Assembly: GCA_951406725.2 (NCBI GenBank)
Contig: OX597837.1
Coordinates: forward strand, 12,276,001 to 12,340,000
Direction of reading: 5' to 3'
From: Octopus vulgaris
Lineage: Eukaryota
DNA length: 64,000 nucleotides
In this document: one piece after another, positions 19,029 through 47,528 of the stretch
Position numbering within the stretch: position 1 is the stretch's first letter
Layout: each line of letters begins with the position of its first letter
Translations under genes and position numbers: made by a program
Notes under the pieces: model-generated
The model's database searches: none
What the model saw: the letters and a program-made list of their open reading frames with translations, nothing else
Told to the model about the DNA's origin: nothing

Positions 19029-20522
19029 ATGGCGAAGTTTAGCAGCTGTTTCGGTCGATATTGTTCATACCGATGGAAGTTATGTTATATATGTTCGATT
19101 GCGATATTTCTCCTGCAGACGATGAGGGTCGATTTAAGTATGGCCTTTGTTTGTATGTTGAAGACACCAAATCGCACGGCTAACGACGCCAACAGCACTC
19201 AGAGTACCCAACAGTGTTCTGGCCTTGATACTCACAATCAGTCCTCACACGAAACATACAATGGAGAGATCACCTGGAGCAACACTCTTCAAGCGAATGT
19301 ATTAGCCGGTTATTACTACGGTTACATTCTAACAAATATTCTTGGAGGCATTTTAGCAGATAAATATGGCGCTAAAAATATTCTAGGCTTTTCTCTCGTT
19401 TCAGCATCGGCTCTGACTTTGCTCTACCCGAGTTTATCTCGAATAAGTGGTTACTTTACACTTGTCTTAAGGATATTAACTGGGTTAGTATCTGGCCCGA
19501 TGTTTCCAACGGTGCAATCTTTATTTGGTCGGTGGGCTCCACCTCTTGAAAGTAGCACATTGATTGGTCTTGTATGTTCTGGTCAACTCATAGGTAGTAT
19601 TGTATGTTATTCTATATCGGGTTTCCTCTGTGTGTATGGATTTGACAATGGGTGGGGTTCTATATTTTATATATTTGGGGGAATGTCACTGTTGTTCAGT
19701 TCTGCTTGGTTCTATTTTGTCTACGATCGTCCAGAGCTCCATCCGTCTCTTGGTCAAGAAGAACGCGCGTACTTGAATAAAACTGTAAGGTGTAAAAGTA
19801 GAGTTAAAAACATACCCTGGAAAAACATTTGGAGTTCGTCTGCTGTTTGGGCCATCGTTGTTGCCCACACTTGCTATAACTGGACTGATCTTACCCTTAC
19901 CTTATTACTACCACTCTACATGAAAGAAGCCTTGAACGTCGAAACAGAATCAAATGGTTTAATGTCATCTGCTCCTTGGATAGGGCAAGCCATTTCCTTG
20001 CCCTTGTTCGGAAGACTTGCAGATTTTATACGCTCAAAGAACTGTCTGTCAACCCGTTCGATCCGAGTGCTTTTCCAAACTGTGTGTTTCGTTTTCTCGG
20101 CGATTCTATTCATTTCTGTAGGTTTTCTGAAATGTGACCAAGTCCCATTGGCTGGTTTTCTCTTTCTTTTTTGTGGTGTCATCTGGTCTCTCTATATAGG
20201 CGGTTTTAATGTGAACCACGTTGACATTGCTCCGAAATACGCTGGTGTATTGTATGGTATTACGAATACATTTAGTTCCCTACCAGGATTTGTGGCTCCA
20301 ATAACAGCTAGAATACTTACACCGAATGGAACGCAAAAAGAATGGCAAATTGTGTTAGCTTTATGTGCAGGGTTTTCTGTGTTAGGGGCAATAGTATATG
20401 CGATTATGGCGAAAGGGGAAATTCAAGATTGGGCCAAGTACGAAGATAGTTCTATAAATGAAAGAGAATCTCTGAATTTGAAAGAGAGAAGTGCAATTGA
20501 CGGAGATTGTGAAAAGGTTTAG
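19029..20522 (+). CDS. SLC17/sialin-like MFS organic anion transporter, 497 aa, single coding exon (paralog 1)
   Basis: Motifs MRVDLSMAFVCM (TM1 Arg), GGILADKYGAK (MFS motif A), WAPPLE, GWGSIFYIFG, PWKNI, NHVDIAPKYAGVLYGITNT and W..V...GEIQDWA, with ~12 hydrophobic segments. AATAAA lies ~45 nt after the stop. Confidence 0.95.
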   Translation: MAKFSSCFGRYCSYRWKLCYICSIAIFLLQTMRVDLSMAFVCMLKTPNRTANDANSTQSTQQCSGLDTHNQSSHETYNGEITWSNTLQANVLAGYYYGYILTNILGGILADKYGAKNILGFSLVSASALTLLYPSLSRISGYFTLVLRILTGLVSGPMFPTVQSLFGRWAPPLESSTLIGLVCSGQLIGSIVCYSISGFLCVYGFDNGWGSIFYIFGGMSLLFSSAWFYFVYDRPELHPSLGQEERAYLNKTVRCKSRVKNIPWKNIWSSSAVWAIVVAHTCYNWTDLTLTLLLPLYMKEALNVETESNGLMSSAPWIGQAISLPLFGRLADFIRSKNCLSTRSIRVLFQTVCFVFSAILFISVGFLKCDQVPLAGFLFLFCGVIWSLYIGGFNVNHVDIAPKYAGVLYGITNTFSSLPGFVAPITARILTPNGTQKEWQIVLALCAGFSVLGAIVYAIMAKGEIQDWAKYEDSSINERESLNLKERSAIDGDCEKV

Positions 20523-20594
20523 TGTGTTATCTAGTCGCAAAGATTATTGTGGAAGCTTGGAAAATCAATAAAAACATTAATAACCAATGAAATA

Positions 20595-20772
20595 TATTAT
20601 TATTATTATTATTATTATTATTATTATTATTATTATTATTATTATTATTATTATTATTAGTTTCATTTGTTTCATTTGTTTCAATACTGTTTTTGCTTCT
20701 TGCCGTGTGTCTTTTTGACTCCTAGGGAAGAAACTCGCTGTATACATTGATAAGCCATTAAACTAAACACAC
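20595..20772 (-). mobile_element. R4/Dong-like 3'UTR remnant with (TAA)n tail
   Basis: RC aatgtatacagcgagtttcttccctagg...cacggcaagaagc resembles 7826-7910 and 12946-13055, and ends in (TAA)n. Confidence 0.6.
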
Positions 20773-44614: not shown

Positions 44615-46046
44615 ATATATATATATATATATATATATATATATATATATATATATATAATACAACATGGACAAAAGAATGTTTTTGAATTAAACTTTTG
44701 GTTAACCGTGTAAAAGATCCTGTTTAAAGCTTAAAGTAAAAATTTGAAAAATTTATTCATTGATCAAAACTGCACTCACTGTAGAGTCTGCTTTGATATA
44801 CTACGTGTGGTTGTAAAAGAGAGATAGGCATTCGACTTTACTGTGTAATTCTACGAGTGTGTGTATATATATTGCTGTACGAAGTCGCTGCTCGTATACA
44901 TATGTGTAGGTACTCGTAAATATAGGCTATGGCATATCGTTGCTGATGAGAGCAGTAAGTAATTTTTTTTTTTACTTTAAGCTTGAAACAGGATCTTCTA
45001 CACGGTTAAATGAAAGTTTCGTTCATTATCTTTCTTTTGGCGGATTACAGTCCGTGTTTTATTTTTCGGATTTTTTTGAGGTGGTATTAGCGTCTTTTGG
45101 CGTTTATTTTTTTAGCACGTGGAGAGGCTTATAGCCAATCTCTTGTTATAATTATGTATATAATTATTAAAATATTTGTAAAATTTACCTATAAGGTTTT
45201 TCTTTCCGTGCTGACCCTCTAGTAAAATCATTAATGATTTTTGTCCCTTATTATAAATAATATATATATATATGATATATATACATATATATATATATAT
45301 ATATATATATATATATATATATACATATATATAATATATATACGTATATACACATATATATATATATACTTACATACATGCATACATACATGCATATATA
45401 CATACACACATACATACAAACATACATACATACATACATATATATATATAAGTATATATATAATATATAATATATATATATTTATACATACATATATATA
45501 CATACATACATACATACACACACACACACACACACATATATATATATATATATACATATATATATATATATACACACATAAGAATAAGCAATAATAAATG
45601 GTGTCCTTGCGAAAACTAATTTAAATATAAGGATTGGGAATCACTGTGAAAAGTTTGGGGACCACTTGTCTATGGTATTAATGTAAAATATTTGTACTTT
45701 GCCATACTCCGTACTTTCCTGAATAAAATTATCTTTACTTTTTCCTACGACCGCAGTGTGATTCGATGATTTCTTTATAGTTTTATATTTTCTTTCTATT
45801 TCAGGTTGATGAATAAAAACTCAAAATGGAATCTTGGTGAAGGAATTTTTTCCGATGCAATGTCTTCTCATCACCAAACACAGCCAGCAGTATATTATAA
45901 ATATTAATCTGAATCGTTGAATGGTTCCAATTGTTCATCGCAAGTACGGAAAATAAATATTGGTTAGTGTAGAACATCTTGCCGTTCCTCAAACTCACTG
46001 AGCCAACAATGGGAAAAACAGATTAGAATAGAACGTGTCAAAGAAA

Positions 46047-47528
46047 ATGTCGAAGTTGAACGAATTTATCAGCCATTATTGTTCATGTCGATGGCGGCTG
46101 TGCTATGTCAGCTTTTTCGCTTTGCTTCTCATGCAGACTTTACGTGTAGACCTTAGTATGTCGTTAGTTTGCATGTTAAAAACACCCAATCGTACAATTG
46201 ATGAAGTCAACCTTACTCGAAATAACGAACACTGTTCTCGTTCAGACAATCGCACATCAAATGGAGAGGATTTTGAAGGAGAGTTCGAATGGAGTAACAT
46301 TCTGCAATCAAACATGCTGGCTGGATACTTTTATGGATACACAATTACTAACCTTCTTGGCGGTGTATTAGCTGACAAATATGGTGGAAAGAGAGTTATG
46401 GGGGCTTCCATATTCTCAGCTTCTCTCCTGGCCATTCTTCACCCAAGTCTAACACGAATAAGTGGTTATTTCACTCTTGTATTGAGGATACTTACAGGTC
46501 TGGTCTCAGCACCCATGCTACCCGCTGTCCAGTCCCTATGGGGGAGGTGGGCCCCACCAAGAGAAAGTAGTGTTTTGATAGGGATTACAATTGCCGGTCA
46601 AACAGTCGGTAGTATTGTCGGTCTGTCAGCTTCCGGTTTCCTTTGTGTTTATGGCTTTGATAATGGATGGGGTTCTATATTTTATATATTTGGTGGATTA
46701 TCGTTGGTGTTTAGCTTTGTGTGGATTTATGTTGTTTATGATAATCCAAACGTCCATCCAACTATCAGCGAAAAAGAACGTTCCTACTTAAACAAAACAA
46801 TAACATGTAAAAGTAAAGTGAAGAACGTGCCTTGGAAAAGCATCATGTCTTCTACAGCCGTTTGGGCCATCATTATGGGGCATACACTTATTAGCTGGAC
46901 CGCTATTTCTTTCCAAGTGACTCTGCCTTTGTATATGAAAGAAGCGTTAAATATTGATACGAAATCAAACGGTTTAATGTCTTCAGCTCCGTTTATTGGG
47001 CAAATGATCGCCATACCATTTTGTGGAAGATTTGCAGACTTCTTGCGTTCAAACAATTATCTTTCAACACGATCCGTTCGAGTTCTTTTCCAGTCAGTTT
47101 CTTACATTGGTTCAGCGTCTCTGATTATCGTAATCGGATTCCTTAATTGCAACCAAACAACATTGGCCGGAATTCTTTTCTTTTTCGCCGGTGCCAGCCT
47201 AACTTTCTATGTTGGGGGTTTCGTTGTGAATCATGTTGACATTGCTCCTAAATACGCTGGTATATTGTTCGGAATTACAAATACCTTCGCATCGTTACCT
47301 GCCTTTCTGGCTCCTTTAACCACAAAATCACTAACACCAAACGGAACACGACAAGAATGGCAGATAGCTTTATCATTGTGTGCCATATCGTCTGTGTGTG
47401 GGACAATATTCTATGCAATATTCGCGAGAGGGGATGTACAAGATTGGGCTAAATCTGATGAAATATCGATTAAAAATTCTTCAAACGAGGAAGAAACTAT
47501 AAAACTAAATGAGGAAAAGCAAAGATAG
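46047..47528 (+). CDS. SLC17/sialin-like MFS transporter, 493 aa (paralog 5)
   Basis: Intact ORF. The ATG at 46047 is homologous to the starts of paralogs 3 and 4; the track start at 46035 is a GTG. Confidence 0.95.
   Translation: MSKLNEFISHYCSCRWRLCYVSFFALLLMQTLRVDLSMSLVCMLKTPNRTIDEVNLTRNNEHCSRSDNRTSNGEDFEGEFEWSNILQSNMLAGYFYGYTITNLLGGVLADKYGGKRVMGASIFSASLLAILHPSLTRISGYFTLVLRILTGLVSAPMLPAVQSLWGRWAPPRESSVLIGITIAGQTVGSIVGLSASGFLCVYGFDNGWGSIFYIFGGLSLVFSFVWIYVVYDNPNVHPTISEKERSYLNKTITCKSKVKNVPWKSIMSSTAVWAIIMGHTLISWTAISFQVTLPLYMKEALNIDTKSNGLMSSAPFIGQMIAIPFCGRFADFLRSNNYLSTRSVRVLFQSVSYIGSASLIIVIGFLNCNQTTLAGILFFFAGASLTFYVGGFVVNHVDIAPKYAGILFGITNTFASLPAFLAPLTTKSLTPNGTRQEWQIALSLCAISSVCGTIFYAIFARGDVQDWAKSDEISIKNSSNEEETIKLNEEKQR

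Follow-up and report, generated by a model that had tools for sequence, protein, structure and literature searches.

A leader exon and conserved pocket blocks in an octopus array of intronless SLC17-like coding sequences

Why do neighbouring transporter genes agree almost letter for letter over long stretches, while their upstream flanks barely align and their predicted substrate pockets differ, and are they separate genes at all? We addressed this question in a 64,000-nucleotide window of the Octopus vulgaris genome (G000:C24:12276001-12340000 of 2.8 Gb; contig OX597837.1), which holds four intact major facilitator superfamily (MFS) genes without introns in their coding sequences (CDSs), named g1, g3, g4 and g5. 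The window proteins score 143-152 bits for the MFS_1 domain against a curated cut-off of 33.4, and the CDS of a further copy, g6, starts 461 bp beyond the window end (L004:1501-2952). An earlier reading made from the letters alone (the sequence-only reading) had placed the intact open reading frames (ORFs) correctly, and the motifs it quoted from transmembrane helices (TMs) 4, 5, 7, 10 and 11 were all exact. We found that a non-coding leader exon ending at 13415 is spliced to g3, and we consider it probable, if well short of certain, that g1, g4, g5 and g6 are likewise alternative last exons of this leader, with pockets that differ inside a scaffold kept alike by gene conversion.

A leader exon spliced to a downstream cassette

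The elements concerned, all on the + strand, are as follows (a slash marks the exon boundary; UTR, untranslated region).

13215-13415, +: shared non-coding leader exon; its 3' end is shown, its 5' end placed by an acceptor-like site at 13214
13416-13421, +: splice donor CAG/GTAAGA, the sole + strand AG/GTAAG in 1-19000
18694-19028, +: candidate g1 acceptor (polypyrimidine tract and CAG) and private 5'UTR, suggested also by the RefSeq isoform naming of counterparts
19029-20522, +: g1 CDS, SLC17-like, 497 aa, 62-63% identical to g3-g5
31557-31697, +: g3 acceptor TTCCAG/ATTGAT and private 5'UTR, its joint to the leader shown by a contig of run X1
31698-33179, +: g3 CDS, 493 aa, with an orthologue-type pocket common to O. 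bimaculoides P0107
38703-38981, +: g4 acceptor TTACAG/ATTGAC and private 5'UTR, putatively joined to the leader
38982-40460, +: g4 CDS, 492 aa, with a pocket nearest O. bimaculoides P0001 and a 12-TM MFS model
45805-46046, +: candidate g5 acceptor TTTCAG/GTTGAT and private 5'UTR; the corresponding g6 site is conserved at 76% across 152 bp
46047-47528, +: g5 CDS, 493 aa, with no O. bimaculoides counterpart among the records compared
63940-64000, +: candidate g6 acceptor, conserved with the g5 site, and start of the putative 5'UTR

In RefSeq, the O. bimaculoides counterparts of g1, g3 and g4 are named isoforms X1/X2/X3, and that of g6 was X3 in an older release; in O. sinensis, the g1 and g6 counterparts are isoforms X1/X2 with consecutive accessions. 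Because these names pointed to shared transcripts, we examined public contigs at g3, which come from independent runs here called runs X1, X2, X8 and X15. A run X1 contig (depth 9.7) fits the g3 locus from 31554 and leaves 22 loose letters. These letters are 13391-13412 of the window, unique in the 2.8-Gb genome (a control pattern gave 0 matches), and the genome continues after them with CAG/GTAAGA. The donor at 13415/13416 is thus spliced to the g3 acceptor at 31556/31557, ~18 kb away, bypassing g1 and g2, a broken copy of g1. That runs X1, X2 and X8 are RNA is a guess; splicing is evidenced by the GT-AG joint itself. A run X15 contig crosses the g3 acceptor unbroken (31429-31717). The leader exon is single-copy in the genome and holds one 17-codon upstream ORF, and further exons may lie upstream of it.

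At g4, contigs of runs X1 and X2, from two studies, begin to fit at 38697, six bases short of the acceptor. The genomic TTACAG at this place equals the end of the leader, and the contigs leave 19 and 24 letters over. The run X1 contig start moreover overlaps by 30 letters (22+3+5) up to the point where g3 (ATTGAT) and g4 (ATTGAC) part, which fits a branch to g4 if the contigs were built from 31-letter words. A run X15 contig also runs through the g4 acceptor, and run X1 has no cover over 37850-38625. These contig ends fit a leader-to-g4 joint, which is strongly implied but short of shown. Scant cover of g4 in run X8 and the lack of a run X2 contig over the g3 UTR were not counted as evidence. 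As the sequence-only reading had it, the copies are intronless in their CDSs; as genes they are not, since an intron lies in the 5'UTR.

The best-surviving alternative makes each cassette an independent gene with a promoter of its own and treats the leader joint as occasional read-through splicing, as in some olfactory receptor (OR) genes; conversion and pocket protection would hold under it all the same. Several points weigh for it and against a common leader. The joint was read letter by letter in only one contig, that of depth 9.7 from a run only guessed to be RNA; the letters left over at g4 were not read; the joints of g1, g5 and g6 are drawn from acceptor-like sites; the RefSeq isoform names are automatic annotation; and a private promoter could still precede each cassette. 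Likewise, the private UTRs of g1, g4 and g5 carry several upstream ATGs, cover in run X2 is low upstream of the g4 acceptor (38065-38482), and neighbours sharing 5'UTR exons are known in mammalian OR clusters (10.1101/774612). However, the contigs of two runs stop fitting at the g4 acceptor, with the gap in run X1 cover before it, isoform naming is repeated in two other species, and the g5/g6 acceptor is conserved while the flank around it decays. We consider separate promoters throughout unlikely, and g1 and g3-g6 are probably not independent genes.

Read as alternative last exons, each of the g1-g6 cassettes would comprise its own acceptor, a short 5'UTR, the CDS and a 3' end, and a single promoter would give rise to several complete SLC17 transporters with copy-specific predicted pocket residues. 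AATAAA or ATTAAA is found 45-202 nt past the stops of g1, g3 and g4 and ~1.5 kb past that of g5, and we infer competition between polyadenylation and splicing as the default mechanism of cassette choice. In Dscam-type splicing, a docking site behind the donor is complementary to selectors before the acceptors. Comparable complementarity was not found here, the longest exact matches within 1 kb behind the donor being 9-11 nt and matched by 17-88 of 100 shuffles. We offer only tentatively the further idea that regulated splicing to alternative last exons lets one promoter and leader choose among five complete SLC17 proteins, with specificity switched by tissue or cell and the whole array maybe composed of several such units. 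If it held, splicing would choose what gets transported. Should the leader prove to be the main promoter, this family's gene counts and its single-cell expression are mis-assigned, and cephalopods do splice among tandem cassettes, in a layout the reverse of vertebrate protocadherins.

An N-terminal protein extension through the leader was considered and rejected, each cassette having an in-frame stop 15-57 nt before its ATG. No leader-like exons were found elsewhere in the array, which argues against a multi-copy trans-spliced leader. Isoform names also link other neighbours, namely P0011/P0015 (counterparts of L014/L009) and P0120/P0121. For L014/L009 and L007/L013/L015 (C24:12.80-12.81 and 12.36-12.40 Mb), the counterparts' isoform names come with consecutive accessions, hinting, from names alone, at further shared-leader units elsewhere in the array.

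Divergent blocks in a near-uniform scaffold

The tandem array seen by the sequence-only reading is present and runs well past the stretch first described: the window is its start, and it extends over ~540 kb (C24:12.295-12.831 Mb) with at least 33 intact ORFs, some on each strand, and additional broken copies. One further intact intron-free copy lies on another chromosome (L038, C20:45752627-45754060; O. sinensis counterpart P0029). Both counts are lower bounds, and the tests on 34 copies reported below use these.

The genes g3, g4 and g5 are 91.7-92.6% identical in DNA and 89-91% in protein, with overall synonymous divergence (dS) of 0.16-0.23 and nonsynonymous divergence (dN) of 0.04-0.05. 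Their near-identity extends to silent sites and to loop 1, as the letters had suggested: the longest stretches without a mismatch measure 250 nt (g3-g5, codons 37-120, including loop 1), 134 nt and 122 nt. Divergence is concentrated in three islands (pS and pN, proportions of synonymous and nonsynonymous differences).

32139-32282, +, codons 148-195: g3 TM4-5 island; pS 0.42-0.55 and pN 0.10-0.15 among g3/g4/g5
39423-39566 (g4) and 46488-46631 (g5), +: equivalents of the TM4-5 island, the same codon block
32529-32576, +, codons 278-293: g3 TM7 island, covering sialin H298-L309 equivalents
32835-32963, +, codons 380-422: g3 TM10-11 island, covering sialin S411, N430 and T434 equivalents

Among codons for the same amino acid, the three g3/g4/g5 pairs differ silently at 7/121, 6/125 and 5/124 in TM1-3 (4-6%) and at 2/64, 4/64 and 4/64 in codons 294-360, but at 11/33, 12/36 and 11/32 in TM4-5 (~33%), a richness in silent changes that had been noticed before. 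Over 30-codon blocks with no chosen boundaries, this heterogeneity was significant in each pair (P=0.002, 0.0045 and 0.0015; 2000 permutations), so that the check for uniform silent divergence proposed with the sequence-only reading came out as non-uniform. By comparison, those 421 of the 435 pairs among the other 30 copies that have a silent fraction of 0.2-0.6 were flat across regions, at 0.33-0.44, and the low silent divergence of g3, g4 and g5 is therefore not regional constraint. The sixth copy shares the low divergence only in codons 13-147 (10-12 silent differences in ~119); in most other regions its silent fraction is 0.3-0.7. The second proposed check, for conversion tracts, gave a mixed result that counts in part against homogenisation. 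Longest-run tests of the GENECONV kind on 125 polymorphic silent sites were weak (P=0.03, 0.24 and 0.30, uncorrected), and on pairwise codons they reached P=0.0005 for g3-g5 and g3-g6. Patchy silent divergence was seen as well in L020/L028, L019/L029 and L010/L012 (P=0.0005-0.015).

The flanks behave differently from the CDSs. The 1.5 kb upstream of g3, g4 and g5 gave no mutual BLAST hit at E<1e-3, in agreement with the claim that 5'UTRs barely align, whereas flanks align in 11 other close array pairs and weakly in a twelfth. Downstream, g4 and g5 share 49 bp; upstream, g5 and g6 share two blocks at 76-82%. The upstream flank of g5 (45690-46046) is thus held in common with g6, yet most of the g5 CDS is nearer g3 and g4, which suggests that g5 is a g6-type locus overwritten by conversion.

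Pocket positions, selection and cross-species history

We mapped 24 sialin pocket and gate residues (PMC9858498, PMC11116495) onto the array by sequence alignment. Consistent with the expectation that the variable residues sit at binding-pocket positions, 8 of the 24 vary among g3, g4 and g5 compared with 49 of 436 positions elsewhere (P=0.005), and five of the six sites with three states are on the pocket/gate list. The variable equivalents include F179, Y203, Q207, N302, F305, Y306 and S411; in sialin, F179, Y203, F305 and Y306 line an inhibitor cavity, Q207 and S411 contact N-acetylaspartylglutamate (NAAG), and Q207A separates NAAG from glutamate transport (PMC9858498, PMC11116495). Two points temper this match: 16 of the 24 positions are invariant among the three genes, and the list includes gate residues and was mapped by alignment, not by model coordinates. 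The locus offers what may be a natural specificity series: its three transporters, 89-91% identical, have their differences chiefly at pocket positions and stay that way across species, which makes anion choice in SLC17 testable by block swaps. Elsewhere in the array, several copies carry Asp, Glu or Lys at TM7 pocket positions, and the equivalent of R57, the anion-binding Arg of sialin, is Lys in L035, L036 and O. bimaculoides P0018.

The sequence-only reading had held that selection protects and also diversifies a hypervariable pocket, making the array a receptor-like repertoire; in its strong form this would be continuing diversification as in immune or odorant receptors. Pocket positions are indeed the fastest TM sites. 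Across the 34 copies, the dN/dS ratio (omega) was 0.48 at pocket positions against 0.26 at other TM sites (P=1e-4), the F179 equivalent shows omega ~1.0 and nine states and the S411 equivalent 0.98 and eight states, and at the 24 pocket codons of g3-g5 pN is 0.12 and pS 0.08, the latter from one silent change. The proposed comparison of site models M7 and M8 looked significant (2dL, twice the log-likelihood difference, of 11.8). However, the signal vanished against M8a (2dL=0.02; at most 0.25 on a free grid), the extra class of M8 had omega 1.06, pooled pocket omega was 0.35-0.47, and pN stayed under pS in each of the three blocks in all 6 pairs. No positive-selection signal therefore stood in the 34 copies by M8 against M8a, which tells against pocket diversification as a continuing force; these selection tests, like the longest-run tests, used our own code and a single fixed tree that takes no account of conversion, and short bursts after duplication would escape such site models. 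Nor are the blocks hypervariable between species. Orthologue pockets are nearly unchanged, with g3 matching its O. bimaculoides orthologue at 46/48 positions in TM4-5 and 16/16 in TM7, and g6 at 47/48, 16/16 and 43/43 in TM4-5, TM7 and TM10-11. Continuing diversification is thus improbable in our view; the picture is that the pockets diverged early and have since been conserved and shielded from conversion.

To place these events in time, we used the O. bimaculoides proteins that carry the pocket motifs of g3 (P0107) and g6 (P0110) and the one that is g4-like (P0001). The quartet of g3, g4, P0107 and P0001 has 17 sites that unite the sequences by copy, 13 that unite them by species and 1 with the remaining grouping. 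A mapped sialin pocket or gate residue is no more than four residues away from 13 of the 17 copy sites and from 1 of the 13 species sites (P=2e-4). In the corresponding g3/g6 quartet, the stretch before codon 148 contains 6 of the 7 species sites and 3 of the 69 copy sites (P=3e-6). Approximately unbiased (AU) tests on ten proteins agreed. For the pocket blocks, the orthology tree was best and both species trees were rejected (P=4e-5 and 5e-9); for codons 13-147, the orthology tree was rejected (7e-5) and the species tree including g6 was best; for codons 196-277 and 294-379, the orthology tree was again rejected (0.002) and the species tree without g6 was best. Three partitions thus gave three winners, each rejecting the others at P<=0.013. 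Together, these results fit a history, reconstructed from sequence comparison, in which g3, g4 and g5 are old duplicates predating the O. bimaculoides split. Conversion would then have overwritten the scaffold separately in each species, in g6 over codons ~13-147 only, and conversions across TM4-5, TM7 and TM10-11 would have been purged by selection. The proposal of old duplicates kept uniform by conversion thus held up against the quartets and AU tests, which equally favour a protected pocket; the diversifying part of that proposal did not stand. Two features lessen the force of this history: the pocket blocks were delimited after the within-species differences had been seen, and the comparison with the other species is at the protein level only, with no counterpart of g5 there.

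A different history would make g3-g5 recent duplicates whose divergent blocks were imported from other paralogues, or would have the islands persist neutrally as too divergent to convert. Divergence itself reduces conversion (PMC3728101), and g6 is converted only in its first third. Against this, the flanks of g3, g4 and g5 are unalignable, unlike those of recent array pairs, the same blocks are present in O. bimaculoides, and the islands are three, separate, free of indels and each on pocket helices; we find either variant hard to sustain. Finally, an assembly or polishing artefact merging paralogous scaffolds is scarcely credible: short contigs do collapse over the scaffold, but independent runs carry the copy-specific blocks (run X15 over 39383-39596 and 32749-32929 with 0 other letters, run X8 over 31710-32327 in one piece), and a second species has the same mosaic with scaffold substitutions of its own. 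The depth of run X15 contigs is 94-97 over the scaffold and 31-39 over unique parts; depth is not copy number, and it was not counted as evidence.

Predicted transport chemistry, origin and known systems

Sialin and VGLUT2 were the best PDB sequence matches (E 3e-102) and the top fold matches (TM-score 0.84) of a predicted g4 model with a 12-helix fold (predicted local distance difference test score 87.7). Sialin R57, R168, Y119, N430 and H298 are kept in g3-g5. Across the copies, the R57 position in TM1 is Arg in 32/34 and Lys in 2, and R168 in TM4 is Arg in 34/34. The array differs from sialin in lacking E171 and E175 (Thr at the former position and Ser or Leu at the latter in 34/34), in having Gln for Y54, in the loss of R195 and in an N-terminal tail of 14 residues without a dileucine motif. 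Proton coupling in sialin needs E171 and E175 (PMC9858498), and sialin also has a voltage-driven mode (PMC11116495). Because all copies lack both glutamates, voltage-driven anion export appears likelier than H+ symport; on these residues, the proteins would move organic anions down the membrane potential, and we rate such export with copy-specific preferences as fairly probable. Two considerations pull the other way. In an alignment of 84 relatives, made up of the 4 window proteins plus 80 of 105 protein hits, 83 also lack both glutamates, so that the loss marks a broad invertebrate clade and is not special to the array, and the Asp found at the N59 position in 33/34 copies could act as a replacement proton site. 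The loss of the glutamates, like the shared upstream exon spliced to the cassettes, had been missed by the sequence-only reading. Its suggestion of vesicular or secretory transporters found no backing, as the tails of 34/34 copies showed no [DE]xxxL[LI] or Yxx-phi sorting motif. Given the absent glutamates, the label sialin is misleading.

As to origin, a multi-exon gene on C3 matches P0037 at 83-100% over six exons. In a FastTree tree of array relatives, which included no vertebrate sequence, P0037 and related records form a clade whose sister is the array; the array clade also has Argonauta members. Because the clade of this intron-bearing gene is sister to the array, the array likely began in octopods as a retrocopy or intron-lost copy of an intron-bearing parent; tandem duplication of a CDS-intronless copy from such a cephalopod parent would then have built it. 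The array belongs to a mollusc-rich clade with the intron-bearing parent on C3, and is at most a putative orthologue of sialin. An expansion of the sialin family in octopus is already known (Albertin et al. 2015, as cited in PMC6110919) and is cited as a cephalopod novelty, with neither organisation nor function described in the literature searched; the 33 intact copies in 540 kb with the one on C20 are presumably that expansion. No account of a shared leader, conversion or pocket islands at this locus was found in the literature searched, though the supplements of the 2015 paper may describe the cluster.

Each component has precedents. Islands of divergence under conversion follow the model of Teshima and Innan, with RH and opsin examples (PMC3728101); there, as here, paralogues are homogenised around narrow divergent exonic islands at functional sites, and the present case differs in that three islands trace a transporter cavity in both halves of the protein, with cross-species confirmation. 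Mammalian OR genes likewise join an intronless CDS to a neighbour's non-coding exon (10.1101/774612), but by read-through between neighbours, while here a single exon seems to serve as many as five cassettes across ~50 kb, a pattern that recurs in three species' data. Vertebrate clustered protocadherins share the arrangement of tandem large exons, one per mRNA (PMC7811963); the layout here is the reverse: the common exon is 5' and non-coding, each alternative last exon holds a complete CDS, and no coding part is shared. According to PMC9068888, whose main text does not contain the words 'sialin', 'transporter' or 'SLC', the protocadherin type of splicing is not used by cephalopod protocadherins. 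PMC2824716 and PMC11649914 served as general background only. RNA-templated conversion was considered as well and is superfluous, since similarity sufficient for conversion persists only in the CDS. Their joint occurrence at a single transporter locus, supported across species, was not found in the literature searched; conversion islands, 5'UTR-exon sharing and the expansion are each known, and the isoform structure is implied by automatic annotation.

Two further features of the window derive from other copies.

24826-26487 (CDS 24965-26452), +: g2, a partial recent copy of g1, frameshifted and without the acceptor that g1 has at -335
33814-34094, +: decayed remnant of another copy spanning TM8-TM10; 76-77% identical, interrupted by stops and frameshifts

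The g2 copy is 97.9% identical to g1 and is disrupted by a 7-bp deletion and a 1-bp insertion. Six of the 20 substitutions between them fall within codons 161-183 (TM4-5; 19509-19576 in g1, 25438-25505 in g2), all residue-changing; several g2 states in TM4-5 equal those of O. bimaculoides P0006, and this block is also divergent among g3-g5. Elsewhere in the array, L021 and L022 encode identical proteins 39 kb apart with flanks 98% identical, and are either a very recent segmental duplication or an assembly duplicate. Between g5 and g6 (51800-61777), a unit of several hundred bases with a 49-bp minisatellite (up to 14 copies) is tandemly duplicated, and a 101-bp tandem repeat (18081-18452, 3.7 copies) ends ~240 bp before the candidate g1 acceptor. 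A 122-codon frame at 7275-7643 may, by resemblance, be a fragment of a LINE-type retroelement.

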